Positions 4,678-26,385 are shown, counted from the stretch's first letter. The stretch is DNA of 26,878 nt from Promethearchaeota archaeon (GCA_048939465.1 JBHLPL010000012.1:1-26878), one strand, 5' to 3'. Numbers and translations are program-made. The notes: a model not told the origin generated them from the sequence alone.

Positions 4678-4710
4678 GTTTTGATACCCGCCTCACCTGA
4701 GTGATTTTAT

Positions 4711-4963: not shown

Positions 4964-5189
4964 AAAGATTAAACCTATCAAATGTCAAACCAGGAGGATG
5001 AGGTTCGACTATTTACCTTTGGACTAATACGGGGACAGTGATGAGGAAAGGATGTATCTTATTTAAGCTCCCTTATCTTATCCTTCTTTTGATTTCGTCT
5101 TGCTTTCAGTCTTAACTTAAATAATAGCGACTGATAAAAGGAGAACACTATCCTTAACGGGTGCCTAGCTTACAGCCGGGGAGATCCAA

Positions 5190-6920: not shown

Positions 6921-7030
6921 AACTGACATAATCCTCAGAATGGAATGAAGAAAAAGAGAATAGATCGAAAACTATTTTTCTACCTTTCAGACTATACTAT
7001 ACCTATACAACACCTTAACATCTGGTTATT

Positions 7031-7738: not shown

Positions 7739-7767
7739 TACGTTGCTGGGGAATAAGCGAATGAATC

Positions 7768-8150
7768 CTATTCTTCCTCAATAAGTTCTTTTTCCTTGAA
7801 TTCCTCTCCCCGCAGAGACAGATAGGCCAATAAGAGGATCCCCGTTATGATTGTCGCGGCGTCCAGTGTTGAAAACACCCGAAAGTCCCTAAGACTCCGA
7901 CTCCGAACCACGCCGTATGCCCATTTTTTAAGACTGTATGACCCGATTGACACCGCGATACCGGGCGATCTCCGGATCAAAGACGCGACTCTGGAATAAG
8001 CTAAGGCTTTATAACAGGATCACAACAGACTGCCCAGAGAGCAATAACCTGCGGTCATGGTAAACCTGCGGGCCCCCAGATTACTCCAGATAGAAAAATC
8101 AAGATGCTTAGCAAAATCGCTCCCAAGGGCTCGATTCTGTCCTCAGACAA
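7768..8150 (-). pseudogene. Probable frameshifted small membrane-protein gene, split over track ORFs 8055-8291 and 7768-7980
   Basis: Fragments EPLGAILLSILIFLSG, LKKWAY and ITGILLLAYLSLRGEEF lie in different frames with stops between them. A 9-bp direct repeat (AACCTGCGG at 8046 and 8063) sits at the first break. The pattern resembles the archaeal 'RPLGV...LKKWAW...ILYYL' membrane proteins (from recall). Confidence 0.5.
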
Positions 8151-8335
8151 AACTTCTCTCTCATCATTTGCTCTGACTCTTTCTTGAAGGAGACCCCTAT
8201 TATTCTTTCCAATGAAATGAAGAAGTCTGTTCCAAAATCCCTCTGGCCCGACGATTGTTAGTAGAAAATCTTTTAAACTACTTGCAAGCAATAAAGACCC
8301 GCTTCCAAGTCAATAAAAAGGAGGTAAAAAGCAAC

Positions 8336-10468: not shown

Positions 10469-10492
10469 AAACTCAACTCGGAGGAAAAATAG

Positions 10493-11992
10493 ATGATAAT
10501 ACCATATGCCCCAATACTGGCGTTATTGCTGCCAACGGTATCCCCTGTAATTATATACCCAGTTGGAAAGAGGTACGGCAAGTTCGCAGAAATAGGATCC
10601 ATAGTCGTTTCCATATTGACAGCAATACTCGTTTTTTCCATGATTCCCGATATAGTTGCCGGATCAACCATTTCCTACTATCCTGGCTACGAGTTTGCTC
10701 CAACACTAGGAATATCGTTCGGTGTTCTTGTTAACGCAGTAAGCTACCCTTTGATGAGCATCATTGCACTGGTATCGTGTTTTGCCACCATCTACAGCTA
10801 TAACTATATGAAGGATGAACCGGGACATGCGGGGTATTATGCCAACTTGTTACTCTTCTTCGGCGGTATGATGGGCGTAGTTCTGGCAACCAATCTCATA
10901 CAGTTTTATATATTCTGGGAATTGATGCTGGTTCCGAGCTGGCTACTCATTGATTTCTGGGGAACACCAGGACAAGGTCCGAAGATTGGATTTAAGTATT
11001 TCATCTTTACACATATTGGAGCCCTATGTATGCTACTCGGCATCTTCGTGCTATTTGCCTTTACGGGAACATTCGACATGGTCGTCCTTGGTTCATTAAT
11101 TGCATCGGCGAGCATACCATTCAATACGATGGCTGCGATTCTGTTCCTATTCATGATCGGTTTTACTGTAAAAATGGCAGCCTTTCCAGTACACACGTGG
11201 TTACCCGATGCACACGGCGAAGCTCCAACGCCCATATCTGCCATGCTGTCTGGCATAATGATAAAACTCGGTGCATTTGCACTGGCCAGAATTGCCCTAA
11301 CTTTCATGGGTAACGTTGTTCTATCAGCTAGGACAATAATCTCAGCCCTTGCGGTCGTAACGATGGTTTGGGGAGGCTTTATGGCCATCGCGCAAACAGA
11401 CATCAAGCGGTTGCTGGCATACTCCAGCGTAAGCCAGATGGGATACATTCTCTTCGGTCTATCAGTCTATTCAGAATTAGGATTAACCGGTGGACTCTTT
11501 CATATTGTTGCTCATGCTCTTGGTAAAGGTGCCCTGTTCATGTGCGCAGGTACTCTTATGCATGAGGTAGGGACAAGAGACATTCGAGAAATGGGTGGAC
11601 TGGCGAGTAAGATGCCAATTACGGCAATAGTATTCCTGATTTCAGCACTTTCCCTAAGCGGTACCCCACCCTTAGCTGGCTTTACATCGGAGTGGCTGAT
11701 CTTCACCGGAGGTCTGGCTCAGATTGCAACCAGTCCCGAAATGCTTTGGATAACTGCAGTAGCTCTAATATCTACAATACTGACTCCCGCTTACTATTTG
11801 TGGACAGTCTGGAGAATCTTCTTTGGAAAAGAACGCAAGAACCAAGATAACGTCCATGAAGCACCTTCAAGCATGTGGGTTCCCATGATTCTGATGGCTG
11901 CATTAACTGTCATTTTTGGAATCTTTCCCAATCTACTACTCAATGTAATCTCGCGAGCAGTTGCTGACATACTGGGTGGCGTGTTCCTCTAG
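10493..11992 (+). CDS. nuoM: NADH-quinone oxidoreductase subunit M / MrpD-like antiporter subunit
   Basis: FYIFWELMLVP, VKMAAFPVHTWLPDAHGEAPTPISAML, LLAYSSVSQMGY, GTPPLAGFTSE; SD GGAGG; 24 nt downstream of nuoL. Confidence 0.9.
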   Translation: MIIPYAPILALLLPTVSPVIIYPVGKRYGKFAEIGSIVVSILTAILVFSMIPDIVAGSTISYYPGYEFAPTLGISFGVLVNAVSYPLMSIIALVSCFATIYSYNYMKDEPGHAGYYANLLLFFGGMMGVVLATNLIQFYIFWELMLVPSWLLIDFWGTPGQGPKIGFKYFIFTHIGALCMLLGIFVLFAFTGTFDMVVLGSLIASASIPFNTMAAILFLFMIGFTVKMAAFPVHTWLPDAHGEAPTPISAMLSGIMIKLGAFALARIALTFMGNVVLSARTIISALAVVTMVWGGFMAIAQTDIKRLLAYSSVSQMGYILFGLSVYSELGLTGGLFHIVAHALGKGALFMCAGTLMHEVGTRDIREMGGLASKMPITAIVFLISALSLSGTPPLAGFTSEWLIFTGGLAQIATSPEMLWITAVALISTILTPAYYLWTVWRIFFGKERKNQDNVHEAPSSMWVPMILMAALTVIFGIFPNLLLNVISRAVADILGGVFL

Positions 11993-12052
11993 CTTCCAGA
12001 TGAATTTCGGACATAAACGTTTGCTGGGTTATCTACCCATTCCTATTTTTAT

Positions 12053-12395
12053 CTATCTTCCGCAAGAAGACTCCGTCAGAGAGGGTGGAGATGAATTCGA
12101 TGTGTTCATGTAATTTTTCGGAAATCAAGTCTTGGGTAAGACACTCAAAAGAGGAAGGGTTCTCAACGGTGTGGGCGTGAAACCCGGCCTGGGAGAGCGG
12201 GTCTTGTGGGTACATCCTGCTTGACAGGGCTGTCCCGTGCCTGTGGCACGTTATGGAGTGAACCAGCCCGAGGGTCTACCTCCTGCGCAGCCGTGGATTC
12301 GGACCACAGAACCCCCTCTGCGAAGCCAAAGTGTCCTCAGACGCAGGAGGCAGAGAGAGGGAGGAGACTCCTTGTGAAGGCTAGGGGTAGTTCAC
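12053..12395 (+). mobile_element. E2: non-autonomous IS200/IS605-derived mini-element
   Basis: TTTAT at 12048-12052, left hairpin CTCCGTCA-GAGA-GGGTGGAG at 12071-12090, right end CTCCTTGT-GAAG-GCTAGGGG-TAGTTCAC at 12368-12395. Interior is GC-rich with several stems and has no convincing ORF. Confidence 0.75.
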
Positions 12396-12411
12396 TGTTC
12401 TTCCGCCTATA
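12220..12411 (+). ncRNA. Candidate omegaRNA-like scaffold plus guide within E2 (boundaries approximate)
   Basis: Hairpins at 12223-12234 and 12236-12250, a 13-bp stem 12275-12287/12342-12354, and internal GTGAAC (12258) complementary to terminal GTTCAC. Confidence 0.4.
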
Positions 12412-12738
12412 TTCCTCTAGAAGACCCTATGAGTAAGGGTGGGAACTGATTGCGTTGTGCTTAAGTATTCTCCTGGATATTTGATTTCGAGGTCTGTGAC
12501 CTTGAAGGCTAAATTCGCATAATTGTTCAAAGAGATGCATCAAAGATCTTGGGAATTCCGTTAAGGACTTCTGTTCTTGCCCGCGCACAAACCTCAGGTA
12601 TCTCGCCCTTGTTAATCATGAACTCCGATGTTTTCCCGTTACCGCTCGTTGATACTCCTCGGGGATAAAAGCAGGAATAGATACATTTTTAGAATAAACC
12701 CGTATATTATTAATTGATAAGATCTTGGAGGACAACCG

Positions 12739-13305
12739 ATGATTAATCCAGGTAAGGACCTAGAGAAGGCAATCGTGGATATTGTTAAAGGTTTGGCCTC
12801 GGTTGTAAAGAAACTGGATGATTCTACTAACCAGCTTACAACAAGAATGAGTGATTTTGAAAAGCGGGTTCTGTCAAGGTTAGAAAAACTCGAGAGTCAA
12901 TTTAGTGGACTGGAAAAGACTAAGGATCTTATCGATGAAATCAGCTTATTGGTACCAGTTCTACAAGTATCCAATCTTTTGAATAATGTAAAGGGAATGG
13001 TACAACCATCTAGACCTCTTACACCAATGAGGAAGGAAATAGTAGCACCTGCCCGAGTTCCAAGACCGGCGCCGACAAAAGACATTGAACCTACTCCCAT
13101 GCCCGCCCAAGAACCTCTGTTTGAAGAGCCAAAAGCGCTTTTTAAGGAAGAGGAATCAGCTCCAAGTTCCCCTTCTTTATCCGATGAGACGGAACCTGAT
13201 GAGAAGGGAGAACCTGAAGTGGTGGTTGGCGAGCGTGTCCCTTCTTACATTAAGAAGAAAGTAAAGCCAAAATCTATATGGGAAGGTATCCGTGACGAAG
13301 AATAA
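12739..13305 (+). CDS. Hypothetical protein: N-terminal coiled coil, Pro-rich/acidic disordered linker, short C-terminal motif
   Basis: Heptad-rich aa 1-90, then PSRPLTP...PARVPRPAPT...EEESAPSSP, ending KPKSIWEGIRDEE. SD GGAGG and AT-rich promoter upstream. Confidence 0.85.
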   Translation: MINPGKDLEKAIVDIVKGLASVVKKLDDSTNQLTTRMSDFEKRVLSRLEKLESQFSGLEKTKDLIDEISLLVPVLQVSNLLNNVKGMVQPSRPLTPMRKEIVAPARVPRPAPTKDIEPTPMPAQEPLFEEPKALFKEEESAPSSPSLSDETEPDEKGEPEVVVGERVPSYIKKKVKPKSIWEGIRDEE

Positions 13306-13326
13306 TTCGGAACGGGTTGAAGGTCT

Positions 13327-13734
13327 TTACTCAAGTTTCTCTAGGACTTCCGTAAGCTGTCTGCTCAGAGATGTTAGCTGAACAAGCCAGGCTGCACTCC
13401 TAGTCTTTTTGAGTAATTTGTCAAGGGTCTCAATCATTTCCTTTGGGGTTCTATTCTTGACTTCCGAAAGAATCGATTGCAGATCTGAATGGGCTTTGTT
13501 CTCGAGTTCTGAGACCTTGCCTATCATGCTTTTCCTTAAGTCCTTGTTATATTTCCCCAGTTGTTCTACCTGCTTTGCCATTGACTTAGTATTCTCATCG
13601 AAACTTTGCTTTAAGTCCTTGAGTGTCTTATTAAGTTCAGTCATGGACTCTATGATGTTATCTGTCCTTGAATAAATGTCATCTAATGCTCTGGTAACAA
13701 ATCTCAACACTTCTCCTGGAACATCTTCACTCAT
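13327..13734 (-). CDS. Hypothetical all-helical coiled-coil protein
   Basis: 135 aa amphipathic heptads, no TM segment; SD GGAGG on the minus strand; 20 nt downstream of 13755-14171. Confidence 0.85.
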   Translation of the reverse strand: MSEDVPGEVLRFVTRALDDIYSRTDNIIESMTELNKTLKDLKQSFDENTKSMAKQVEQLGKYNKDLRKSMIGKVSELENKAHSDLQSILSEVKNRTPKEMIETLDKLLKKTRSAAWLVQLTSLSRQLTEVLEKLE

Positions 13735-13754
13735 TATTTACGCCTCCAGGTTTC

Positions 13755-14171
13755 TTAATTGGTCCTGGCTTTTCGGGCGAGAAGTTTGAGCCCCTCTCTC
13801 ATTTTGTCGAGGTCAATTCCGCTCAGTACACTCTGACTCATTTCATCGATCTTGCCTATGGCTCGATCCAGTCTCTTTATATCAAAAGTATTCTTAATGC
13901 TGTCAATTCCTGCGTTGAGATTCCTAATCAGGAAATTGGTCTGTTCATCAAACCTCTGCGTTTCAGCCCCGATTGCCTCAGTGAGTTGATTAATCATGTT
14001 TCCAAGCTCTTCTGTGTTGCTCTCGAAAGCTTGAGCTAAATCCTCTCTTATGGTCTTCGTAACTTCATCGATGCTTCTGGCAACTTCATCGAGCTTATTC
14101 ATTAGGTTAGAGAACTTCTCTTCTATCTTCTTGCTCAAAACTTTATCACCATATTTAGAGGTGCCGAACAT
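13755..14171 (-). CDS. Hypothetical all-helical coiled-coil protein
   Basis: 138 aa amphipathic heptads, no TM segment; probably co-transcribed with 13327-13734. Confidence 0.85.
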   Translation of the reverse strand: MFGTSKYGDKVLSKKIEEKFSNLMNKLDEVARSIDEVTKTIREDLAQAFESNTEELGNMINQLTEAIGAETQRFDEQTNFLIRNLNAGIDSIKNTFDIKRLDRAIGKIDEMSQSVLSGIDLDKMREGLKLLARKARTN

Positions 14172-14363
14172 ATTTAATAAAAGTATTCATGAACTTACAT
14201 CTTGAGTGCGAATCCATCTTAGAAGTTTGGCAGCAAAAGTCGAGTGCCGTGAGCTATTGTATACGCTCCCTTATCCAGAATCGATATTAATGCATTAGCG
14301 AAGATTGAGCTATCCAAATTTAAATAGCCACGTCACTCAGACTGGACGAAGGGGATAGAGTAG

Positions 14364-14636
14364 ATGGTCATAATTAGGGGAGTAATCAAAAGCATAAGTC
14401 CTCCTAAAACAAAGAGGATTAGTCACCGCAGAGTGTTCGCGTATCTGATCTTTACCATAGAAGATGAACAAGAGAAGCTGTATTCTGTCCTTATACCCGA
14501 TAAGATATTTAGAAAATCAGGCTTTGTCCCAAGAGTTGGACACGAAGTCGAACTTGAAGGGTACAGGAGTGAACCTCGCTATGCTTTGGTCGATTATGAA
14601 GTTAGTAGAGTTAAATGGATCAGGAGAATAGGATGA
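14364..14636 (+). CDS. Small basic single OB-fold protein (RPA/SSB-like topology)
   Basis: Beta-strand pattern VIIRGVIKSI...YLIFTIEDE...YSVLIP...VGHEVELEGY...YEVSRV is typical of OB folds; Lys/Arg rich. Confidence 0.7.
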   Translation: MVIIRGVIKSISPPKTKRISHRRVFAYLIFTIEDEQEKLYSVLIPDKIFRKSGFVPRVGHEVELEGYRSEPRYALVDYEVSRVKWIRRIG

Positions 14637-14638
14637 TT

Positions 14639-14875
14639 CAGGGGTCTTGTGCGAGTAAACTACTCCTCCCTTGCGGAAGGAACTTATGACTGTGCTTGGC
14701 CGCAATTCCTTTTCAGGCTTTGGCTTCATCGCACGTCAAGTCAGGGCAGTTTACGGTGCCCCAGCCCGGTAATCCGCATGTAGCGTCGGGCTTAAGAGTT
14801 TACCTCATCCGTTCCCATTCTCCTTGCAGGTCTTTAACCGTTTCCACATCGGAGAGAGGTGTGCCTTTAGACCTA
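14639..14875 (-). ncRNA. Candidate omegaRNA-like scaffold plus guide within E3 (boundaries approximate)
   Basis: Hairpin GGGCA-CCGTAAAC-TGCCC displays GTAAAC (14754-14749), complementary to terminal GTTTAC. GAAGCCAAAG is shared with E2 at the same distance from the end (72 vs 73 nt). Stem TAGGTCT/AGACCTG. Confidence 0.45.
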
Positions 14876-14957
14876 TTAGCACGTTTGGCACGGGCCTATT
14901 TTAAGACCACTCAGTCCCTCTCCGTCCTCTCGGACGGAGTCTCCTTGAGGTGGCTCA
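14655..14957 (-). mobile_element. E3: non-autonomous IS200/IS605-derived mini-element (left boundary approximate)
   Basis: Minus strand: perfect left hairpin CTCCGTCC-GAGA-GGACGGAG (14939-14920; 24/28 identical to the E2 left core), CTTAAAAT at 14905-14898, right end TTCCTTCC-GCAA-GGGAGGAG-TAGTTTAC (14682-14655). Confidence 0.75.
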
Positions 14958-15142
14958 GACGAATGAAGCTGGTGCCGAAAAATCCTCATATATTAGAAGT
15001 ATTTATGATTCTGTTTTCTGGGTAATCTTTGTTGCGAGTTATATGACGAATACGTTTATATCTGGAGATAAGTACAACCAATATTGTGAAAAGATGAAAA
15101 ATAAACAATGATACTCAAGGATTCATCAATCATCAGCTCCCA

Positions 15143-16054
15143 ATGATTAGAGACAATGGAGGAATGGTTTTGTCCTATGAGCAAATACCGATATTGGTTG
15201 ATCAACTAAGAAATGGGGTAAGAAGACTGCAGGAAACCCTTTTATCCGAACTAGATTTTGGACTGCAGCATTACAGTGAGGAACTAGATCGATGCAAGAC
15301 GAGAATACCTGTTCGCCTCAAAGGATTTGGCGGTATAGACATCTTTGCCAAAATAGTAGAACGGATAGTAGACGAGGAAATAATATCGACTATTGTAGAT
15401 TGTGAAGAAAGAATCTGGAACAACGTGAAGAGTATTCTATCGGGCGCAATAGGCGGTATTAACCAATCTGCCGAAGAGATTTCAGATCACGTTACAGCTC
15501 TTGTCAACCGAATTGAAGCTTCTCCTGAGATTTCCATGTTAAAGAGCAAATTGACTGAAAAAGAAGAGAGAATAACAGAACTCCATCAAGCAATTGAGGA
15601 ACGTAAGATCGAAGTGGAGACTTTGAAGGCGAAAGTAGCAGAGCTAGGGTCAGAACTTCACGCCAAGGAAAATGCGCTTGAAGAAATGAGAGATGAGCTA
15701 CCCAGAGATATCAAGAAACTTACAAGTACTGTCGAGAGCCAAAGAAATCAGATAGAGGTCCAAGAAGCTAATATACGTGAACTCTCTGAGAGAGCCATGG
15801 AAATGGAAAGAGAAATACACATCACGGGAGAACGCTGGAATCGTTTAGTAAACGTCGTTACGGATGATACACGCTATGGTTGGTTCTTCAAACTAACCGA
15901 TCAACATGGATGGACGGAATTGAAAAGGCTGATAGTTGGGCATCCTACAGTTTACGTTTTGGAACGCTGGGTCAGACCCTTTGAAGACAAGGGACTGGTA
16001 GAGCTCAAAGAAGAAGATGGAAAAGTAATGGTTAAGGCTTTAGAATTTGAGTAA
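15143..16054 (+). CDS. Hypothetical protein: helical N-terminus, long coiled coil, probable C-terminal winged helix
   Basis: Coiled coil at about aa 125-230 (LKSKLTEKEERITELHQAIEERKIEVETLKAKV...); C-terminal LERWVRPFEDKGLVELKEEDGKVMV looks like a wHTH recognition helix plus wing. Confidence 0.85.
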   Translation: MIRDNGGMVLSYEQIPILVDQLRNGVRRLQETLLSELDFGLQHYSEELDRCKTRIPVRLKGFGGIDIFAKIVERIVDEEIISTIVDCEERIWNNVKSILSGAIGGINQSAEEISDHVTALVNRIEASPEISMLKSKLTEKEERITELHQAIEERKIEVETLKAKVAELGSELHAKENALEEMRDELPRDIKKLTSTVESQRNQIEVQEANIRELSERAMEMEREIHITGERWNRLVNVVTDDTRYGWFFKLTDQHGWTELKRLIVGHPTVYVLERWVRPFEDKGLVELKEEDGKVMVKALEFE

Positions 16055-16174
16055 TCATCAGGTAGTCTTGTCAATTAATTTTGGAACGGTTGCTTCTCCG
16101 ACCGTTTAGATTTCACGGGCAAATCTTATTAATGAGGGTCTTTCTTAAAACCCTCGTATTGTTTTGTTCCGGGG

Positions 16175-17116
16175 GTGTCTGTACTGTCGGAGGAGGAGCG
16201 TGCAGATTACATCTGGATGGACGGGAAACAGGTCAAATGGGATGACGCCAAAGTTCACATAAAGGCCCATGTACTATCCTATGGGACCGGAGTATTTGAG
16301 GGGATACGAGGTTATGCTTATAATGATAATGTCAACATCTTCAGACTAAGAAAACACTTGGATCGGTTGTATTATTCTGCCATGATTTACAGGATGAATA
16401 TACCTTTTACGAAAGAGGAATTGAAGAATGCTATTGTCAAGCTCATTATAGACAATGAGATGAGAGTAGATTGCTATATTCGTCCTCTCGTATATCGTGG
16501 CTATGGCCCCTTTGGCGTGAATCCTTTAAGGAGCCCAATAAATGTGGCAATTTATGTCATTCCAATTGGAGAATACTTGGGAAAAGGAGCCACAAAACGT
16601 GGCATAAAATGTTTGGTCTCATCGTGGCAGAGAATTCCATCCCATGCAATCCCAATTCATGCCAAGGCATGTGGGAATTACCTGAATTCTGTGATTGCAA
16701 GACTCGAGGCCATAGAGAGGAACTATGATGAAGCCATATTCCTGGACCATCGAGGGTTTATTTCGGAAGGAACCGGGGAGAACTTATTCGCTGTAAAAGA
16801 CGGAAGAGCATCAACACCACCAAGCTATGCATCGATACTAATGGGCATAACGAGAGACTCCTTAATTACTCTGCTCAAAGAAGAACTCCACATTGAGGTT
16901 GTGGAGACTGATATTACCCGAGCCTCACTCTACGATATGGATGAGGTTTTCATTTGTGGAACTGCAGGAGAGATAACGCCAGTTGTAGTCATAGACCATA
17001 CGGAGGTTGGGGATGGCAAACCGGGCCCCTTAACAAAGAGATTACAGCGAGTATATCTCGATACAGTACGTGGAAAAATCTCAAGATATTCTAACTGGAT
17101 TATGCCCGTGTATTAG
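16175..17116 (+). CDS. ilvE: Branched-chain amino acid aminotransferase (PLP fold IV), GTG start
   Basis: LSYGTGVFEGIR, YIRP, KACGNY (PLP Lys), EGTGENLF, ILMGITR, CGTAGEI. Confidence 0.95.
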   Translation: MSVLSEEERADYIWMDGKQVKWDDAKVHIKAHVLSYGTGVFEGIRGYAYNDNVNIFRLRKHLDRLYYSAMIYRMNIPFTKEELKNAIVKLIIDNEMRVDCYIRPLVYRGYGPFGVNPLRSPINVAIYVIPIGEYLGKGATKRGIKCLVSSWQRIPSHAIPIHAKACGNYLNSVIARLEAIERNYDEAIFLDHRGFISEGTGENLFAVKDGRASTPPSYASILMGITRDSLITLLKEELHIEVVETDITRASLYDMDEVFICGTAGEITPVVVIDHTEVGDGKPGPLTKRLQRVYLDTVRGKISRYSNWIMPVY

Positions 17117-17118
17117 AG

Positions 17119-18051
17119 CTAAAGCTTGATTGAAGAAGCTATCAGATCACATTCGTTAATTCTCTCTTCTTTCAGTTTTTCCCGATAAAGGGAGACTACT
17201 GTATGTTTTGGTGTTACAGCAAAGACCACTCCGCGTTTTGCGTAACCTATCTCATCGAATCCTTGGGTTCTCATTAGATTATCAAGTCTATTATTCATCT
17301 CTTCCAAGTTTGCGCCTCCATATGGAGGGGGTTCCAAAACTATCTGTCTCTGAGGAAAGACGTTATACGTCGAAATGGCCAATACATCGTGATTCACATC
17401 ATGTCTAATCCAGAACTTGAGTGTATTCCCCCAACTGTGAATGTGATGCACAACCAGAACTGCATTCAAACCTTCAATCAGTGATAGAAAAATGCCAAGC
17501 CCCTCCTCATAGGTTGCCTTACCGAGCCTTTCAAGTATGTCTCTTCCTGCACCTATTACGTTTTCAATCCCTACCCCCTTCTTCTTCAGCTCATCCTCCA
17601 AAAGATGAGGCAATACTTCACTGTCGACTATTCCTCCTTGATTTACGGTTTTGAATTGGTGTCCTTGCTTTGAAAGCAGACTGTAGCGTTGCTCATAGTC
17701 ATTGACTGCACCATTGTGTACCACGTAGATTGAATTATTGCAATCTGAATAGGGATGCACGAATCTCTCTTCTACCGGTACGATGATATCGGAAAATCGT
17801 GTATGGCCAATCAGAATTTCTTCGCCACGCCAACCAGCATCTTGAGCTTTTTCGAAAGCGTCTCTGGCAAAAGAGCTACTCCTAATACGAGATAATCTAT
17901 GATCTAAAAGACGCATCAACCCTGTTCCAGAACCACCCATATTGCCAAGAAGTCTAAAGGCATTTCTCCCGCCGACGTATTCTTCGAGGATTTCAAGTAT
18001 TGAAATCGTTAAATCCAAGTTTCCTGGGATTGTACATATTATGCCGCACAT
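17119..18051 (-). CDS. Stand-alone class II glutamine amidotransferase (Ntn-hydrolase) domain protein
   Basis: N-terminal MCGI (nucleophile Cys), IGHTRF, VHNG, VDSE; no SIS, PRTase or synthetase domain recognisable. Confidence 0.85.
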   Translation of the reverse strand: MCGIICTIPGNLDLTISILEILEEYVGGRNAFRLLGNMGGSGTGLMRLLDHRLSRIRSSSFARDAFEKAQDAGWRGEEILIGHTRFSDIIVPVEERFVHPYSDCNNSIYVVHNGAVNDYEQRYSLLSKQGHQFKTVNQGGIVDSEVLPHLLEDELKKKGVGIENVIGAGRDILERLGKATYEEGLGIFLSLIEGLNAVLVVHHIHSWGNTLKFWIRHDVNHDVLAISTYNVFPQRQIVLEPPPYGGANLEEMNNRLDNLMRTQGFDEIGYAKRGVVFAVTPKHTVVSLYREKLKEERINECDLIASSIKL

Positions 18052-18119
18052 AATTCTCTCCCTTAGTTTCTGGAATTAATATGACCGTCGAACCTGGACG
18101 ACTGATTTCTATACCGGCA

Positions 18120-20024
18120 CTAATAGAACTCAAAAGGGGAAACATAATCCCCGTGTTTCTTTCTTACAGCCAACAGTCTCCGTCTTTGCTCTTTCAGCAA
18201 TCTAAATACCTCTATGGGTGTGTAGAGAGTATCAGTCGTGTATGTTTTCATTAACCTATCACTCTTCGCTAGATTTTCTGGGACTCTCAGTGTGAATTGC
18301 TTAATATAGTCTTCTTTTGAGTAGTTCTTGTCAAGGACTTCTTTGAATAACCTCTTAAGGTCTTCATGTTTTGGTATAAGTCCTGTTGGTGTCTTTGCTG
18401 CTTCAATCTCCTTATGAGATCTTAATTCCATCCATTTGAGCCAGACTGCTTTGTCAATTTTATCATTTACGAAATTCCCTTCAGAGTCTCTCAAGAAATA
18501 ATTCACAGAGAAAATCGGAGGAGGCTTATTTAGCATAGTACCGAATTCAAGATGCTTTTCAATATATCTTTCCAGCGTTATCGATAAGAAATCTAGGTTG
18601 GACATTGGATTAAACATTCTTACGCCCACCCTTCCTAAACTGGCCGGCGTGGTTTCGGACTCCAGAGACGCACCCTTTGTGATTACGCCATGAATCCAAT
18701 CAAAAGCCTCCTCAACAGGGACCCATGTGTCTGGGTCTCTGCCACCATATATTATTCCGCCTATCTTGACGCCTTCAGGGTCGTTTAATCTTGGATCTGC
18801 ATTTTCCAGGAGTTTCATATCAACAGTAAACCGAGCATTCTTATGAGCAGGAGGTATTTCATTCCCCTCAGCATCTTTTTTTCCTAAAGTCCACTCTCCG
18901 GAGTGATTGATTCCTCTTTCTGGGACTTTGCCATCTTTTCCAATCCAGTAGACACTCCCGGTTTCATTAACTAAGATATTCGAAAATATAATCTCACCTG
19001 TTGAATTTAGCACTCTCCATAATATTGGATCGTCTTCCGAGTTAATACCCTGTATTATTCCAAATATCCCTTTCTCAACATTAGCTGCTCTTAATTCACC
19101 GTCTTTCTCTCTAAGATACGCAATATCATCTCCGATTATGCTTTCGCCTTCCACCATTGAAGTAGATGTCTTTCCGCACAAGGAAGGAAATGCACCCGCA
19201 AAGTAAGTTACTCTTCCATAAGGACCGTGAACACCCATTATGAACATGTGCTCAGCCAGCCAGCCTTCCTTTGATGCCTTGTTTATCGCCAATCTTAGCG
19301 CCAACTTCTTAAGTCCGATAGTATTCCCGCCATATTGGGTATTCGCACTATATACTGTGTCATCTTGGAGATCAATGTATATTCTGCGCTTTTCAACGTC
19401 TTTACTTACGTTGTTTTCAAGTCTCCCTTCTGAATGTATAAACTTAAAGAAGCGAGCACCTCTTCCTAGTCTTATGAATTCATCATATCCTGGCCTATAA
19501 AGCAAGTACTCACTGTGAGCCACGTAGCTGGAATCGGTAAGTTGGACGCACGGTATGGAGAATTTGGAGTTCATGGGACCTAACGTAAAGAATAGTATGT
19601 AGAGCTTGTGTCCCTTCATAATGTTCTTCAAGATAGTGTGTATCTCTTTAAGTCCCTGCTTCCTATCCATCCAGTTTATGCCAGGGCCCAAATACTCCTC
19701 TTCATCTAGAAGAAATTTCGTCTGTTCCTTGTCCCTGGCTTGATCGTAATAACCATCAAAGTGAGCGGTATGTCCCTCCGTAGCAAGTACCATCTCCTCC
19801 CCTGTTCTTGCAGCCTCTTCTCGAATGTACTGCGTGTCTTCCGGGGAATCTGAAGAAACAAAGGCGCTATCTGGATTACAATGTTTCAAATACTTCGAAA
19901 TAAGTCTGTCAAGTTCTGGATTATTTATTGCCTTGAGCCTCTTATAGTGCTCGTCACTCAGCCTAGTTCTAAGTATGTTGTGTGCTCCGCCTATTTCCTG
20001 TTCCTCTTCAGGCAAATAAACCAC
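18120..20024 (-). CDS. pckG: Phosphoenolpyruvate carboxykinase (GTP), archaeal type
   Basis: YGGNTIGLKK, WLAEHM, FPSLCGKTS, IGDDIA, HKNARFT, IIYGGRD, FNPMSNLDF. Confidence 0.97.
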   Translation of the reverse strand: MVYLPEEEQEIGGAHNILRTRLSDEHYKRLKAINNPELDRLISKYLKHCNPDSAFVSSDSPEDTQYIREEAARTGEEMVLATEGHTAHFDGYYDQARDKEQTKFLLDEEEYLGPGINWMDRKQGLKEIHTILKNIMKGHKLYILFFTLGPMNSKFSIPCVQLTDSSYVAHSEYLLYRPGYDEFIRLGRGARFFKFIHSEGRLENNVSKDVEKRRIYIDLQDDTVYSANTQYGGNTIGLKKLALRLAINKASKEGWLAEHMFIMGVHGPYGRVTYFAGAFPSLCGKTSTSMVEGESIIGDDIAYLREKDGELRAANVEKGIFGIIQGINSEDDPILWRVLNSTGEIIFSNILVNETGSVYWIGKDGKVPERGINHSGEWTLGKKDAEGNEIPPAHKNARFTVDMKLLENADPRLNDPEGVKIGGIIYGGRDPDTWVPVEEAFDWIHGVITKGASLESETTPASLGRVGVRMFNPMSNLDFLSITLERYIEKHLEFGTMLNKPPPIFSVNYFLRDSEGNFVNDKIDKAVWLKWMELRSHKEIEAAKTPTGLIPKHEDLKRLFKEVLDKNYSKEDYIKQFTLRVPENLAKSDRLMKTYTTDTLYTPIEVFRLLKEQRRRLLAVRKKHGDYVSPFEFY

Positions 20025-20142
20025 CTAGAGCGTAATTACCATTATCTGCCCATGCAATATTTATAAGATTTGTCGAAAGAACCAGTCGAAACGATAAACA
20101 TTAAAAGTCCGTTGCGCATAGTCAGTTTTGGAGGGCAAAATA

Positions 20143-20694
20143 ATGCAAATAATGGAATTCTTCATGTCTCTTGCAGATTTCAAAGGGCCAATCTTGATTA
20201 TTGCAGGTCTCATTTCTGCGATCAGTATATTTCAATGGCTGGCTGGACGTGATAAGGAAGAAGAATGGAAAACAACAATAAAATTGGCTGCCTTCATAGG
20301 CTTTTTTGTAGGGATAATATCCTTGATCGTTGGCGGGACCGTATGGAGTATGGGAGTTGCGGACTGGATAACGATTGCGCTTTTCATAATAGTCGGGTTG
20401 GCTTTGTGTTTGGGCCCGATTAAGAAACTGCCTCTGGCCGGGATAGCTGCACTAGCTATAGGCAGTTTGGTTGCTGCTTTCGTTTCAGGATTCTTTGGTT
20501 CAATTAAGATCGTGGCAGCTGTCTTCGTAATTATCTTCATATTAGTATTCGTATTTGCCAAAGCAATTGAAACCATATTGGATGGCATTGGTACCGTACT
20601 GAGCTTCCCGCTAGTATCAATTCCCTTAGGTCTGATCTGCATTGTTCAGGGAGTACTGCTACTCTTAGGGACTTCACTGGCTGCGCTCTTTTAA
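20143..20694 (+). CDS. Hypothetical polytopic membrane protein (about 6 TM); start probably ATG 20143
   Basis: Almost entirely hydrophobic helices; GGAGG SD precedes ATG 20143 (the track begins at TTG 20128). Confidence 0.85.
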   Translation: MQIMEFFMSLADFKGPILIIAGLISAISIFQWLAGRDKEEEWKTTIKLAAFIGFFVGIISLIVGGTVWSMGVADWITIALFIIVGLALCLGPIKKLPLAGIAALAIGSLVAAFVSGFFGSIKIVAAVFVIIFILVFVFAKAIETILDGIGTVLSFPLVSIPLGLICIVQGVLLLLGTSLAALF

Positions 20695-20920
20695 ATACAC
20701 TCTTTCTCTATTTCTTTAGCTTCTCTATTTCACGCAGACCCAAGCAATAGGATTTCTTCTCATTTCTGGATTTATATTGCCGAAAGCTTTAATGATAATT
20801 CAATCACTGAGAGTATCGCAACCTAAAGTCGAATGATACTAAAAAAGCTTAAATTACCATTCGCAATAAGTATATATTGGGTACTTGAGCTGAAACATAT
20901 GTGACTAACTATTAGCCGTA

Positions 20921-22408
20921 TTGAGAAGACCGCAAAAGAGGTATTCACTGTTGTTAGACGGACTCCAGAAGAGCAGTTTGGAGAAAACGGGAATTGATTT
21001 GCTAGACAATATGTTAGAAGGTGGTCTTCCCTCTTCAACTGCGATAGTGGTCGTAGGGGAGTCAGGAGTCGGAAAGTCTATAATGTGTCAGAAATTCCTT
21101 CATGAGGGACTGAAGAACGGTGATGGGGCGATATACGTAGCTTTGAGTGAATCCTCAAATACGATCGCCTCCACGATGAAACGTATGGGATGGGATATAA
21201 CCAATTATCTGGAAAATGAGCAGTTGATGTTTATCGAAAGTTACCCCTCGAAAACTCTCTTTGTTGAAGGCAATTACTTTGACCCAAGAAATCTCTCTCT
21301 CCTAAACCTGAAGATTGCTTCCGCATTTAGCTATATGAGAAAGTATGACAAAGTGCGTCTTGTGATAGATTCATTGTCCGATCTAATTGAGTATGACAGA
21401 GAAGGTAGATATATTGGGAATTTCCTCGATGAACTCATAGCAAATATTCATTTGGACAATGTCTCTTGTCTATGCACACTAACGCCCGAAGTCCAACCGG
21501 AGGAAGTGAGAGAACAAGTCCAAAGCGGCTTCGACGGTGAGATTGAGTTTAGGTTCACTGAGGTTGCAGGAAGCTACCAAAGGCAGGTTAGAGTAAAGAG
21601 AGTGAGAGATGAATATCGTAATTCAAAGTGGACAAGCTTTGCATTGACAAACAATGAGGGAATGGTTCCTCTGTCGGCGACGGGAGAAGGAAGCGAGCCA
21701 GAAATACTTGCTCTTGCGCCGCAAATATACGATGTTTACATAATCGACAGAAACGGCTATTGCTTATTTAATGCGAAAACCAAAGATGCTGAATATGAAG
21801 TGGACGTAGTCTCTGCTTTTTTGACTGCTGTATCAACCTTTGCAAAGCAGATGCTACCTAGCGAAGGCGAATTATCAGGAATCCGGAAGGGAAATCTACA
21901 GATACTGTGCGAATGGGGACAAAATATCTGTGTTACCGTAGTATGTACAAACGATACTGCAGAAGATGAAGTAAGATACAAGATGAGAATTCTCGCAGAT
22001 ACGTTTGAAGTGAGATTTAATCATTTACTTGAGTATTGGGACGGAGACCTCTCTGTGTTCAAACCAGTGGAGCGATTGGTAAGAAGATACTTCGGCTCAC
22101 ACCTCTCCCGGATAGATGATGGTGATGCTACTGAACCTCGAACACAACTATACTCCATCGATGATCTCGGCTCAAAAGCATATTGGGATTACTACAGGGA
22201 TTCGAAGGGCTTTGGACTATTTAGGAGAAAAAACCAAATTCCAATTAATGAAGTTGACAAGCTAATTGACTTAATATCTGCAGAGAGGCTGAGTGTTGAT
22301 GAATTGGAGAGAGCCATTGAAAAGGGTAGAATAAAATTAACAAAAGAACTAGCTATGAGGGCATTGATGAATCTGCATAGGAGAGAGATCATTTATTTGA
22401 TATCTTAA
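20921..22408 (+). CDS. KaiC/RAD55-like RecA-fold ATPase fused to a longin-type domain and a probable C-terminal winged helix
   Basis: KTGIDLLDNMLEGGLP, Walker A GESGVGKS, Walker B LVIDS. Then IYDVYIIDRNGYCLF...VSAFLTAVSTFAKQ...FEVRF...WDGDLSVF, the typical Asgard longin pattern. Start uncertain (TTG). Confidence 0.9.
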   Translation: MRRPQKRYSLLLDGLQKSSLEKTGIDLLDNMLEGGLPSSTAIVVVGESGVGKSIMCQKFLHEGLKNGDGAIYVALSESSNTIASTMKRMGWDITNYLENEQLMFIESYPSKTLFVEGNYFDPRNLSLLNLKIASAFSYMRKYDKVRLVIDSLSDLIEYDREGRYIGNFLDELIANIHLDNVSCLCTLTPEVQPEEVREQVQSGFDGEIEFRFTEVAGSYQRQVRVKRVRDEYRNSKWTSFALTNNEGMVPLSATGEGSEPEILALAPQIYDVYIIDRNGYCLFNAKTKDAEYEVDVVSAFLTAVSTFAKQMLPSEGELSGIRKGNLQILCEWGQNICVTVVCTNDTAEDEVRYKMRILADTFEVRFNHLLEYWDGDLSVFKPVERLVRRYFGSHLSRIDDGDATEPRTQLYSIDDLGSKAYWDYYRDSKGFGLFRRKNQIPINEVDKLIDLISAERLSVDELERAIEKGRIKLTKELAMRALMNLHRREIIYLIS

Positions 22409-22428
22409 TTTTGTAATCTGAAAAATAG

Positions 22429-23448
22429 GTGGGGTCGATGGCAAAAAGTATCAGAAACACCATTCTAAAGTTGAAAGTCATGGGAAAGGCTCTCTTCTCT
22501 GACATAAGATCCTTAGATAAAGGAACCCGTCAGCTGAGCGAGAGATTACTGACACAGATCGCCATAAAGGAAGGCTATCCGAGCCTGCTTATGAGCCCAC
22601 TAACACTCGAACAGATTATCGAACAGATGAGATACAAGAATACAGACCTTGCTGCTGATTTTATGAAGGTCCTAGTTGAAATTGGTGTAATTCGAGAGAA
22701 TGGTGGAGTATATGTATGGAAAGGAAAGAAGATTAAGATAGGAAAACATGAGCGAAGACTGCAGAAAATAGGGTTAGCTTTTGCCAGAATCTCGGAGGTA
22801 TTCTCCACATATATGCCATATGCATTACGAGGACACGGAAAAACACGCGAGTTTACTAGAGAGCTGCTACTTGCTATTTGGGATAGTTTATATTCAAGTG
22901 AATTCTACAAATTTGCAAGAGGACTTGTGATCGACTGGGCAAGACTCCCTAAGTATCAAACGATCCTTGACATAGGGTGTGGTACTGGCTGGAGCACAAT
23001 TAACATAATACAAAAGACCAATGCTGAAAAGGTATTTGCAGTAGATCGTTCACAGAAAGCAATTGATATTGCGAAAGAGAACATCAACATCACAGGATAC
23101 GATGACAGAGTTGAGTTCATCGTTTGTAATATTTCGAAGAAGCCTCCTACTGAAAAAGAGGTAGACGGTGCATTCTCTTCATTGTTTTTCCACTGGCTCA
23201 ATCGAGACGAGATTGTCCAGGCCCTTAAAAATATTAGAGCCTCATTGAAGCCTGGAGCTATTTTCTGTGGATTACAGCCCTTAAACAAGAGAACTGATAG
23301 AATGGCTTATTTTGATGTTTTGTTTCGTGCCTCCATTGACTTTAAAGGGTATCCTCAGAGGGATTTCTTTATTGAAGCCTTCAAAAATTCCAATTTCGAA
23401 GATCTGAGTATATGGTCGAACGGAATTTTTTCATGCAAGGCAATCTAA
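22429..23448 (+). CDS. Class I SAM-dependent methyltransferase with N-terminal helical/wHTH domain; start possibly ATG 22438
   Basis: ILDIGCGTG, FAVDRS, FFHW, LKPGA; 20 nt downstream of the KaiC-longin gene. Confidence 0.9.
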   Translation: MGSMAKSIRNTILKLKVMGKALFSDIRSLDKGTRQLSERLLTQIAIKEGYPSLLMSPLTLEQIIEQMRYKNTDLAADFMKVLVEIGVIRENGGVYVWKGKKIKIGKHERRLQKIGLAFARISEVFSTYMPYALRGHGKTREFTRELLLAIWDSLYSSEFYKFARGLVIDWARLPKYQTILDIGCGTGWSTINIIQKTNAEKVFAVDRSQKAIDIAKENINITGYDDRVEFIVCNISKKPPTEKEVDGAFSSLFFHWLNRDEIVQALKNIRASLKPGAIFCGLQPLNKRTDRMAYFDVLFRASIDFKGYPQRDFFIEAFKNSNFEDLSIWSNGIFSCKAI

Positions 23449-24749
23449 GAGACCTCCTCACCAACGTTGGAAATTATATGTCTAGTTCTTGCAGAAGGGG
23501 TTTCCTTTATCTTTTCTGTAAATCGGACCTTTAAATCCGCCCCTTTGAAGAGCTCTCCACAAATCCTCTCAACTTTTTCGGCAGTTCTATCGCTGAAATC
23601 CTTACCTTTTACTAAATACACTTCTATTTTATCTCTTTGTGGTTGTATTACTTGATAGTTCTCGAGCTGCAGGATGTCTCCTAATTCTCCAATAACTATT
23701 TGTGGATAAACCAGCTCCCCGGCAGGGAGTCTGATAATATCCTCAGCTCTCCCCTCTATAACATCAATTAAAGGAAATGTTCTGCCACAGCTGCATTCGT
23801 TGCCACCAGCTCTGACGATGTCCCGTGTATCATATCTGATTAGTGGCATCGCCTCTCTCATCAATGGCGTCAGAATAAGCCGCCCTCTCTCACCTTCAGC
23901 TACCGGTTCATTATTTTTGTCTACCACTTCCATGATAGCTGTGTCGATATTCGTATGAAGTCCCATATGTTCAGAACATTCATATCCAAAAACATTAATC
24001 TCGGTTATTCCGTATGCATCAAAGACTTCAGCATTCAATGATTCTTCAATTCCTCTTCTTATTTTATCATTAAGAATCTCAGAGCCTGTCACTACCGTTC
24101 TAAGATGCGGGAATTCCAAATCATGGTCGGCCATGTACTGTCCTATTGAATATGCCACTGATGGATATACACTTAGTAATGTGGGATCGTATTTCAGAAG
24201 CTCTTCAACTATTTCGGGCAAGGGCTTTTTTATTGAAATCATCTTTACTTTGGCAAGGAGTTTGACGATTCCGCCAAAGAGCGTTTTTACCAAGGTCGCT
24301 CCAATAAAAGGCCCAATCATGAGCAATTGAGCTACCCTATCTTTCAAAGTTCTAAGACCTGCTGCTTCTGACACTCTTGAAGCTGTTGCTGCAACAATCG
24401 CTATGTCGTTTTCTGTGAAAAAGATCTCTACGGGCTCCCCAGTACTTCCTGAAGTGGTTACTCTGATTAATTTCGTATCTTTGACTTCTTTTGAAATCAT
24501 ATTGTTATACCTTAACGTACTTTTCTTGGTCAGAGGCAGTTTTCGTAAATCCTCTTTCGTGTTTATGTCATCTGGCTTGAGGCCAAGTGAGTCGAATAAT
24601 CGATGATAGTATTCAGTGTTTTCGTAGGCTATATGAACCTCTTTTTTCAATTCCTTCAACTGCAGTTTCTCGAGTTCATCCATTTTCTTGTACGGGTTTT
24701 TTCTCAACTTGCGCCTTGCTCTAAGAAGTTTGTATAACATGCCCCCCAC
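23445..24749 (-). CDS. Phenylacetate-CoA ligase-family (PaaK-like) adenylate-forming enzyme
   Basis: TTSGSTGEP P-loop, DAYGITE, RYDTRD, CSCGRTFP, EGRAED. The substrate cannot be inferred. Confidence 0.9.
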   Translation of the reverse strand: MGGMLYKLLRARRKLRKNPYKKMDELEKLQLKELKKEVHIAYENTEYYHRLFDSLGLKPDDINTKEDLRKLPLTKKSTLRYNNMISKEVKDTKLIRVTTSGSTGEPVEIFFTENDIAIVAATASRVSEAAGLRTLKDRVAQLLMIGPFIGATLVKTLFGGIVKLLAKVKMISIKKPLPEIVEELLKYDPTLLSVYPSVAYSIGQYMADHDLEFPHLRTVVTGSEILNDKIRRGIEESLNAEVFDAYGITEINVFGYECSEHMGLHTNIDTAIMEVVDKNNEPVAEGERGRLILTPLMREAMPLIRYDTRDIVRAGGNECSCGRTFPLIDVIEGRAEDIIRLPAGELVYPQIVIGELGDILQLENYQVIQPQRDKIEVYLVKGKDFSDRTAEKVERICGELFKGADLKVRFTEKIKETPSARTRHIISNVGEEVS

Positions 24750-24877
24750 CTTCTTCTCTTTTCACCTATTATGTTTTCTAGTGATATAAAAGCTCTAGTA
24801 CGATTTGTTGTATTCTCTGCTTAACTAAGCAAAGGGTTTTTTATAAAAACAAAGACATACTTTCTATCTGAATTCGC

Positions 24878-25350
24878 TTAGGCACAGGCAGCTTCTCCAA
24901 TTCTTGAGATCATGTGCCATCTCCTAGCAGAGGGAGTTTCTGGCATCTTCTCTGTGAAGTCAATATTCACATTTGTGCCCTTAAAAACGTCTCTGCGAAA
25001 TTTCTCAACTTTCTTACCGCCCCCATCAATGAAATATCTACTTCACTGTCCTTCTCTATGGTGCCCATTTGAGGCTTTACGCCTCGATAATTCCTAAGCC
25101 CCTTAATTTCGCCCCACTCACCAGTTGAAGTTCGTGGATGGATGAAACTTCCATCGGGGGCTTAATCGCTTCCTCAACTCGCCCCCCCATGATATCAATT
25201 GAAGGAAAGGTTCTTCCGCAGTTGCATTCATTTCCACCGATTCTGACAATGACGTATGTCAGATCTGATTAACTGCATTGCCTCTCTCGAAGACAGTGTT
25301 AAAATAAGTTTTCTTCTCCCCCCTTCAGATATTGGCCTATGTTAAATATC
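24878..25350 (-). pseudogene. Degraded 3' fragment of a paralogue of the adjacent PaaK-like gene
   Basis: Minus-strand fragments KLILTLSSREAMQLIR, VRIGGNECNCGRTFPSIDIMGGRVEE, PDGSFIHP and KKVEKF...FKGTNVNIDFTEKMPETPSARRWHMISRIGE* are colinear with aa ~295-434 of 23445-24749, with frameshifts and a stop. Confidence 0.85.
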
Positions 25351-25653
25351 GGCTGGAGATCCCGTCCGTAGGGGTGGGGAGGAAAGCCGACCTCCCGCAA
25401 CATTTGAGTTTTTAAATCCTGATGAAGACTAAATATGGGTGGAGCATCAGGAAAGACAATCGTCGTTGCTGTTAAATCGGCTGTGGTGCGGGATCATTCT
25501 CAAGGTCAAGGTCTCAACCTCTTTTCCCAGTCTACCAGGCCCTGAGTCTCTGTAAACAGGCTCTTTCGTCCGGGTGATGAGGTTTTGAGTGGTGCGGTGC
25601 ACTATACTCGGCCTCTGATGGAAAGCTCCCTGCGATAGCTGGGAGTAGTTTAC
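25351..25653 (+). mobile_element. E4: non-autonomous IS200/IS605-derived mini-element (left boundary approximate) abutting the PaaK pseudogene
   Basis: Left hairpin TCCCGTCC-GTAG-GGGTGGGG at 25360-25379, TTTTTAAAT at 25409-25417, right end CTCCCTGC-GATA-GCTGGGAG-TAGTTTAC at 25626-25653. Confidence 0.72.
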
Positions 25654-25882: not shown

Positions 25883-25933
25883 GTTTACGAACTTTTTTAT
25901 CCTTGGCTTTTCAAGTAATGCACAGCATTTGAG
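25883..25933 (+). repeat. 51-bp direct repeat, copy 1 (promoter/5'UTR-like module)
   Basis: GTTTACGAACTTTTTTATCCTTGGCTTTTCAAGTAATGCACAGCATTTGAG; 45/51 identical to copy 2, with the first 24 nt identical. Confidence 0.9.
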
Positions 25934-26318
25934 CAGATTAGACAAGCAGAATAGATCTTCTGAGGTGAAGCGTTTGAAGGATTCGGATGCTCTCAAGAGA
26001 ATAGCGAAGGAATTGGATGATCTTGAGAGGATGGATAAGGAAGATCAGGAGAAAATTCGAAAATCATTTTATGAAGACTTGACCAAATTCGATATAGACA
26101 TTCTGAGAATATTGAGCAGAGATTTACTTATTACAGGGAAAGGTGAGTCAATAGCAGTGAGGGCAACGAAAGAGCATATGGATGCCTTGGTGAGATTAAT
26201 AATACTTGGTTTTGCAGAACTGAAAAAGAGGGAAAATGGCAAATATTTATTGAAGGTATCAAAATCGGGAAAGAGATTCCTCGAGGATACTGAGCAGGGG
26301 GCTGATTTTGAGGACTAG
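25929..26318 (+). CDS. Hypothetical protein with charged N-terminal helix and probable C-terminal winged helix (TTG start uncertain)
   Basis: FDIDILRIL...ALVRLIILGFAELKKRENGKYLLKVSKSGKRFL is a wHTH-like pattern. Confidence 0.7.
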   Translation: MSRLDKQNRSSEVKRLKDSDALKRIAKELDDLERMDKEDQEKIRKSFYEDLTKFDIDILRILSRDLLITGKGESIAVRATKEHMDALVRLIILGFAELKKRENGKYLLKVSKSGKRFLEDTEQGADFED

Positions 26319-26334: not shown

Positions 26335-26385
26335 GTTTACGAACTTTTTTATCCTTGGATTTTCAAGTACTAAACAGTGTTTGAG
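26335..26385 (+). repeat. 51-bp direct repeat, copy 2
   Basis: GTTTACGAACTTTTTTATCCTTGGATTTTCAAGTACTAAACAGTGTTTGAG; 452 nt downstream of copy 1, directly upstream of the next gene. Confidence 0.9.

Follow-up and report, generated by a model that had tools for sequence, protein, structure and literature searches.

Does a mobile element that has lost its tnpB gene still carry the RNA scaffold of the TnpB nuclease? The question is raised by three short elements, E2, E3 and E4, in a 26,878-nt stretch of DNA (the window, taken at its full length) that forms contig C10 of an Asgard archaeon assembly (Promethearchaeota archaeon; 1.96 Mb, 152 contigs, 91% complete). These elements measure 308–343 nt and have neither a transposase nor a tnpB gene, with short TnpB C-terminal remnants overlapping the scaffold region. 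A first-pass annotation of the window had pointed to a terminal hexamer complementary to an internal one in each of them, reading it as the co-varying pseudoknot of an intact omegaRNA scaffold on which selection had acted after tnpB was lost. Our results indicate that E2, E3 and E4 can be classed as non-autonomous IS200/IS605 mini-elements of the palindrome-associated transposable element (PATE) type, and that they probably keep the omegaRNA scaffold of tnpB-carrying ancestors together with its canonical pseudoknot. The three elements are delimited as follows.

12053 to 12395, plus strand: E2, subfamily E2a, 343 nt, gene-less, from nhmmer family matches; right end from the family alignment and from loose read-contig ends at 12395
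14655 to 14958 or 14962, minus strand: E3, about 304–308 nt, from family matches; left boundary ambiguous by 4 nt
25341 to 25653, plus strand: E4, 313 nt, from family matches and left-end flank alignment

Fold of the right-end scaffold

The right 112–145 nt of E2, E3 and E4 fold in the layout of the omegaRNA of ISDra2 TnpB. The E4 family presents stem 1, immediately followed by the stem-2 5′ strand; the stem-3 hairpin comes next, then the stem-2 3′ strand, the right-end hairpin and, last, the terminal hexamer. The E2 structures were drawn by hand on this E4/ISDra2 layout and tested afterwards. Every hexamer, hairpin, 8-nt loop and shared motif described for the three elements in the first-pass annotation is present letter for letter, and the complete omegaRNA-type scaffold that it proposed consists of the following predicted parts.

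12227 to 12269, plus strand: E2 stem 1, GGGCTG (12227–12232) with CAGCCC (12264–12269), enclosing an inserted hairpin (12236–12250) and the internal hexamer GTGAAC (12258–12263)
12279 to 12364, plus strand: E2 stem 2, CCTCCT (12279–12284) with GGGAGG (12359–12364), around a stem-3 region that is long and variable; stem-2 cells 93% paired across the E2a alignment
12367 to 12395, plus strand: E2 right-end hairpin (12367–12388), then AGTTCAC, whose last six bases, GTTCAC (12390–12395), are both pseudoknot 3′ strand and TnpA cleavage motif (TEM)
14744 to 14761, minus strand: E3 stem-1 hairpin, GGGCA/TGCCC with the 8-nt loop CCGTAAAC; its GTAAAC corresponds to plus-strand positions 14749–14754
14655 to 14683, minus strand: E3 right-end hairpin (14663–14683) and terminal TAGTTTAC; GTTTAC, plus-strand positions 14655–14660, is pseudoknot 3′ strand and TEM
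25544 to 25563, plus strand: E4 stem-1 hairpin, GAGTCT/AGGCTC with the 8-nt loop CTGTAAAC; pseudoknot 5′ strand at 25552–25557
25564 to 25623, plus strand: E4 stem 2, 25564–25570 with 25617–25623, around stem 3; 94% and 88% of cells paired
25625 to 25653, plus strand: E4 right-end hairpin (25625–25646) and terminal GTTTAC (25648–25653), pseudoknot 3′ strand and TEM

Copies of the mini-elements were collected by iterative nhmmer across the contigs of this genome, and their alignments were compared with shuffled (500 shuffles) and slid versions. Pairing reaches 90.1% of cells among the E4 copies of this genome (7 sequences) and 90.5% among the E3 copies (19 sequences), with 10 and 12 pairs, respectively, changed on both sides against 4.7 ± 1.6 and 6.2 ± 1.9 in shuffled alignments (0/500 in both cases). 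Two covariance models, R1 from the E3 scaffold and R2 from the E2b scaffold, were then searched in 151 sampled Asgard genomes and matched 25/151 and 18/151 of them, giving phylum-wide alignments of 79 E3-type and 56 E2-type sequences, that is, 135 copies from more than 20 genomes. As these alignments are fitted to the model stems and their sequences are related, the shuffle counts overstate the support, and it is with this reservation that 91.5% of the E3-type cells pair, compared with 81.3% after shuffling and no more than 45% after sliding (both-side changes in 22 of 32 pairs), that 89.0% of the E2-type cells do so versus 79.5% shuffled (30 of 40 pairs), and that the covariation scores of 0.366 versus 0.201 (E3-type) and 0.270 versus 0.150 (E2-type) are reached by none of 500 shuffles. 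All 6 pairs of the E3-type stem 1 show both-side changes phylum-wide around a constant loop hexamer. Stem covariation strongly supports the predicted multi-stem fold. Among the modelled pairs, G.U exceeds A.C by 314:83 and 177:89, which favours the tnpB-sense strand as that of the putative RNA.

A 13-bp stem of E2 with an A.C pair (12275–12287 with 12342–12354), originally raised as a caveat to the strand assignment, has become moot because it is peculiar to the copy in the window, with 64% of cells paired, no better than in shuffles. Two other candidates were set aside. A MAFFT alignment of all families placed an internal E2a hairpin (loop CACAGAAAC) against E3 stem 1, and was rejected because stem 2 encloses this hairpin, which belongs to the variable stem-3 region, and because covariance model alignment puts the E2 GTGAAC in the stem-1 loop. 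RNAalifold folds of the E2a and E2b alignments were unconvincing and were dropped.

The loop-to-end pseudoknot

The pairing in question links GTRAAC, found in the stem-1 loop towards its 3′ side, with the terminal six bases of the element, GTTYAC, and is complementary at 6/6 positions in E2, E3 and E4. Counted from the end, the internal hexamer stands at −138 (E2), −100 (E3) and −102 (E4), abutting the 3′ strand of stem 1 in all types. The E2 hexamer is found further out because of the hairpin inserted in its stem-1 loop and of the longer E2a stem 3, both particular to this genus; relatives of E2 in two other genomes (G004, G016) have a plain stem 1 (GGGCGT/ACGCCC) with GTGAAC as the whole 6-nt loop. 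The internal hexamers can accordingly be read as the canonical pseudoknot 5′ strand, including the one at 12258 of E2, which corresponds to the loop of these relatives. E2 and E3 also have in common GAAGCCAAAG, which begins 73 nt from the E2 end (12322) and 72 nt from the E3 end (14727, minus strand).

The pseudoknot columns lie outside the R1 and R2 models. Pairing holds in 95.0% of the E3-type cells, versus 93.0 ± 0.3% shuffled and at most 48% slid, and in 92% of the E2-type cells. At one E3-type pair an A-U to G-C switch is seen in seven sequences (from G027, G043, G069 and G075), at another pair in two sequences, and double-change cells number 9 against 1.3 ± 1.0 in shuffled alignments (0/500). 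The G-C/A-U difference between E2 and E3/E4, which had been taken for a compensatory change, is truly compensatory, and it recurs inside a single scaffold type: the E3-like scaffold of G075 has GTGAAC/GTTCAC. Single compensatory cases in this genome include GTAGGC/GTCTAC in an E4 copy and GCGAAC/GTTCGC and GTAAAC/GTCTGC in E2a copies; copies C139_2539, C106_4449, C137_10725 and C69_8432 are compensatory. In the phylum-wide alignments the stems beat all 500 shuffles, and so do the few pseudoknot switches of the E3-type alignment.

Within this genome, the picture is less clear. A within-family permutation gives no significant pseudoknot covariation (p = 0.105), and for E2a alone 63/500 shuffles reach the observed covariation score; the unstratified permutation (p = 5e-5) rests on the difference between E2 and E3/E4, which are related, and the three pseudoknots are not independent cases. 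Significance arises only through between-family or phylum-wide switches, that is, few evolutionary events. The covariation of the pseudoknot is weaker than originally claimed, and the available alignments describe a pseudoknot that is strongly conserved and backed by few independent switches, not one that is richly co-varying.

A tetranucleotide 5′ of the right-end hairpin (AAAG/TTAC in E4), considered as a TnpA DNA guide pairing with the terminus, yielded no consistent rule across families.

Linkage of the scaffolds to tnpB

The genome has tnpB genes on contigs C2 (384 amino acids) and C105 (433 amino acids, beside tnpA) and a third one divided between C70 and C55, and the family left end is found upstream of those on C2, C105 and C70. 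The two parts of the third gene share an identical overlap of 25 amino acids, merge into a protein of 385 amino acids and are followed by an E3-type right end. They lie at C70:1-1100 and C55:5720-6043, both contig ends. The gene itself is not broken: the assembly was interrupted here by a repeat. The C2 protein matches ISDra2 TnpB with E=1e-60, and the RuvC D-E-D residues are present in both the C2 and the C70/C55 proteins. In a three-way alignment, the C105 gene (C105:1539-2840) has G-D at the position of the RuvC-II glutamate of the other two; it lies beside the only Y1 tnpA of the genome (C105:1180-1545).

The right part of E3 and the 3′ end of the C55 tnpB are homologous. Phylum-wide, 12 of the 79 aligned E3-type copies were counted as tnpB-linked. 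Eight of these are directly behind a TnpB of about 400 amino acids, 66–70% identical to the C70/C55 protein, in genomes G024, G033, G043 and G058; the other four are a partial C55 copy, L118 (only 83 amino acids aligned), L081 (28% identity) and the E4-like L080. In G075 an E3-type scaffold stands behind a more distant TnpB (28% identity). E2-type scaffolds follow tnpB in the congener G001 and in G004 and G016, and an E4-type scaffold in G004 (G004:C16) follows an open reading frame of 454 amino acids with TnpB similarity. As far as the assembled sequence goes, E3 is the only one of the three types with a cognate tnpB in this genome. The pseudoknot is perfect in 17/18 tnpB-linked copies, the sole exception being poorly aligned, and in 78/117 gene-less copies phylum-wide (48/67 and 30/50).

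Mini-elements of the genome

With a right end preserved, 27 E2-like, 22 E3-like and 9 E4-like copies are found in this genome, and more than 70 gene-less copies if all four families are considered; their left ends are common with the tnpB elements on C2, C105 and C70, and gene-less elements far outnumber the nuclease-bearing ones. The shared left end (about 80 nt) has many additional nhmmer matches in the genome. A TTYAT motif stands 5′ of the left ends across the family, a TTTAAATA-like box is conserved in nearly all of them, including those upstream of tnpB, and the right-end hairpin with AGTTYAC is common to minis and tnpB elements. The box of E3 is listed here.

14897 to 14904, minus strand: TATA-like box TTAAAATA in the E3 left end, a putative scaffold promoter judged from sequence

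The fourth family, E5, comprises 16 mini copies of about 190–230 nt. Examples are C130:5154-5380 and C141:1219-1445, which have only the last ~112 nt in common with the C2 tnpB element. The latter has a stem 1 (GCGAT/ATCGC) with CTGAAC in its loop at −108, neither being recognisable in E5, and the E5 family seems to lack an intact pseudoknot. Smaller still are at least 12 forms of about 50 nt, composed of a TTTAT-like flank and the left-end hairpin followed directly by TAGTTCAC or TAGTTTAC, such as C73:16322-16375, C23:2007-2054, C68:5933-5980 and C105:988-1043. On C105, one such micro-element directly precedes the single tnpA gene of the genome. An E2a copy at C48:18816-19220 has an end-only micro-element nested in opposite orientation inside its stem-1 region.

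Proposed origin and possible function

We propose that the minis derive from tnpB-carrying elements through internal deletion and that two modules would have been kept: a left end with the TnpA hairpin and the TATA-like box, and the right 112–145 nt, which in full-length relatives overlap the tnpB 3′ end and would encode the omegaRNA scaffold. A transcript starting in the left end would run through the scaffold into the flank, the flank acting as guide; TnpB supplied in trans would cut the empty site (TTYAT plus flank), and recombination would restore the element. Transcription, TnpB binding and present activity of the minis are inferred. The sequencing runs listed as containing this DNA include none of RNA. 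Activity is plausible for E3 because its cognate tnpB is present, and doubtful for E2 and E4 because none was found for them in the assembly.

A bolder idea is that the minis form a maintained repertoire of trans-acting guide RNAs, with dozens of E3-type RNAs served by the single C70/C55 TnpB and the E2 and E4 types used by a non-cognate TnpB or by a TnpB-like protein that the host has recruited, either in homing or in RNA-guided regulation where the elements are inserted. We offer this as speculation and regard it as quite improbable.

Maintenance or decay

The most serious alternative is that the minis are decaying relics: deletion derivatives in which the scaffold was left by chance, mobilised by TnpA through their ends, with no maintenance of an RNA function. 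E2, E3 and E4 would then be intact as they are young and as TnpA needs the terminal hexamer. Much of what speaks for decay also weighs against a maintained scaffold. The pseudoknot is imperfect in 33% of the minis versus 1/18 tnpB-linked copies (Fisher p = 0.014), and the degenerate mini-element E1 has three bases of its hexamer deleted, in line with the early remark that it has no clear internal hexamer. The terminal hexamer doubles as the TnpA cleavage motif, and therefore its conservation needs no RNA. E5 minis are multi-copy despite their loss of the stem-1/pseudoknot part found behind the C2 tnpB, and the ~50-nt forms show that bare ends can be multi-copy. In the E2 subfamily, paired and pseudoknot columns are no less diverged than unpaired ones (divergence is equal in all three within E2a), and the TATA-like box of E2 itself is mutated. 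Remnants inside minis are all that the 91%-complete assembly contains of an E2-type or E4-type tnpB. To these points must be added the weak pseudoknot covariation within this genome described above and the lack of any Rfam family matching the scaffold: the window has no Rfam match at the gathering threshold, and chance-level matches appear only at E up to 5 in ten loci.

Decay does not easily account for the pattern of divergence. Taken together, the mini-elements found in this genome depart from their family consensus by 12.4% in pseudoknot columns, by 15.4% in stem columns and by 19.7% where bases are unpaired, and the pooled Fisher tests return p = 2e-4 for pseudoknot versus unpaired and p = 1e-4 for stems versus unpaired. 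E3 and E4 minis diverge by 12–13% and 7–12% in paired and pseudoknot columns versus 18–29% in unpaired ones. Compensatory changes occur among minis with one common deletion junction, the internal hexamer is about as conserved as the terminal one without any known need of it by TnpA, and the full module is kept by three independent scaffold types. On balance we find the relic account rather unlikely. Selection at the RNA level after tnpB loss, as put forward in the first-pass annotation, is partly supported by these comparisons: it agrees with the lower divergence of paired and pseudoknot columns in E3 and E4 minis, and finds no such echo in the E2 subfamily or in the more frequently broken pseudoknots of the minis.

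Stems and loop-to-end pairing might instead form in the single-stranded DNA intermediate and serve TnpA, a possibility that we rate as very improbable. In studied systems such as IS608, the DNA guide is immediately adjacent to the subterminal hairpin, on its 5′ side, and not ~100 nt away like the hexamer here. The ~50-nt end-only forms are multi-copy in this genome, the ISDra2 TnpB structure contains an RNA of this very layout, and the module is the tnpB 3′ end in full-length elements. What such a DNA-level role has in its favour is that TnpA acts on folded single-stranded ends and that its cleavage sites are recognised via short internal DNA guides (PMC10055086); G.T pairs are also possible in DNA, which makes the G.U/A.C strand bias compatible with it. 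Chance complementarity of hexamers in related repeats has a negligible probability: an exact complement within 150 nt arises in 1.6–4.2% of shuffles per element, and E3 has a second GTAAAC at −149, but in each of four scaffold types the hexamer is placed identically with respect to stem 1, and the 92–95% of cells paired across the 135 copies, against at most 48% when slid, reject it. A scaffold retained from tnpB-carrying ancestors is the reading that we favour.

Insertion sites and other features of the window

Three further features related to these families were located in the window.

4705 to 4963, plus strand: E1, degenerate E2b-type mini-element with a 3-nt deletion within the pseudoknot hexamer
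12048 to 12052, plus strand: TTTAT, motif 5′ of E2 resembling a transposon-associated motif (TAM), conserved 5′ of family left ends and also present in the G002 flank
12403 to 12507, plus strand: degenerate left end standing alone, from another element and directly adjoining the E2 right end

Orthologous sites were compared in the congeneric genomes G001 and G002. E3 is missing in both, each with TTCAT at that site, and it is therefore a lineage-specific insertion; the alternatives for its left boundary place TTCAT at 14963-14967 or the homologous TTCGT at 14959-14963. The G002 flank matches the E2 locus up to the TTTAT motif. Neither congener has an empty site for E2; both have there ~1.3 kb of unrelated sequence, which matches neither TnpB nor any of the element families. 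Where the congeners have this ~1.3 kb, our genome has E2, the solo left end and ~200 nt of other sequence (12396-12700). The difference at the E2 locus suggests an element-associated deletion. The orthologous E4 locus is rearranged in G001 and G002 and offers no empty site. Contigs from four DNA runs, compared with positions 4500-24400, bridge E2. Neither for E2 nor for E3 do they contain the clean joint of an empty site, and at element borders they show only loose ends, derived from other copies.

Downstream of E4, two 51-nt direct repeats (25883-25933 and 26335-26385) are 88% identical and both begin with GTTTACGAAC. They occur nowhere else in the genome, each stands just upstream of a small open reading frame (25929-26318; 26396 onwards), and they may have arisen as duplicates of a promoter or leader region in front of paralogous genes.

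Comparison with known systems

The closest structural reference is the omegaRNA of ISDra2 TnpB from Deinococcus radiodurans, also called right-end element RNA (reRNA), solved by cryo-electron microscopy (8H1J/8EXA), in which positions −106 to −102 of the stem-1 loop form a pseudoknot with −6 to −2 (Nakagawa et al. 2023, PMC10097598). Common to both are a right-end scaffold overlapping the tnpB 3′ end, stem 1, a stem 2 around a stem 3 (dispensable in ISDra2), a last hairpin and a pseudoknot between loop and pre-guide, which in the Asgard copies would join −107 to −95 (or −138 in E2a) to −6 to −1. The predicted Asgard RNA differs in having no detectable sequence similarity to it and no Rfam model, in a pseudoknot strand that abuts the stem-1 3′ strand and, for E2, in the extra stem-1-loop hairpin and long stem 3; moreover, the window copies are without tnpB and known here from sequence alone.

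The three scaffold types are widespread in Asgard archaea and share their loop-to-TEM pseudoknot with the solved TnpB RNA from bacteria, and our covariance models and alignments could seed Rfam-type families. Pseudoknot integrity separates tnpB-linked from gene-less copies, which bears on the use of PATE guide RNAs in trans. The current picture of TnpB biology is unchanged by these results.

PATEs of Haloquadratum walsbyi are reportedly the subject of an earlier paper on such elements. Like PATEs, the Asgard minis are gene-less and multi-copy, have ends like those of the tnpA/tnpB elements of the same genome and would be mobilised by TnpA in trans; they differ in their Asgard host, in the coexistence of at least three scaffold types, two of them without a cognate tnpB in the assembly, and in a very high copy number for a 2-Mb genome. 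Non-autonomous IS200/IS605 elements encoding omegaRNAs, PATEs included, are already published (Meers et al. 2023, PMC10055086), and the loop-to-TEM pseudoknot has been described for bacterial and archaeal omegaRNAs (PMC10097598; PMC12558985). Compared with the omegaRNAs, or sense overlapping transcripts (sotRNAs), of Halobacterium salinarum, which are tnpB-linked and expressed (PMC12558985), the Asgard elements are gene-less and known from sequence. Both the kind of element and the RNA feature are thus already described, and what is new here is that the pseudoknot was tested explicitly, that three scaffold types found across the Asgard archaea are described for which Rfam has no family, and that tnpB-linked copies contrast with gene-less ones.

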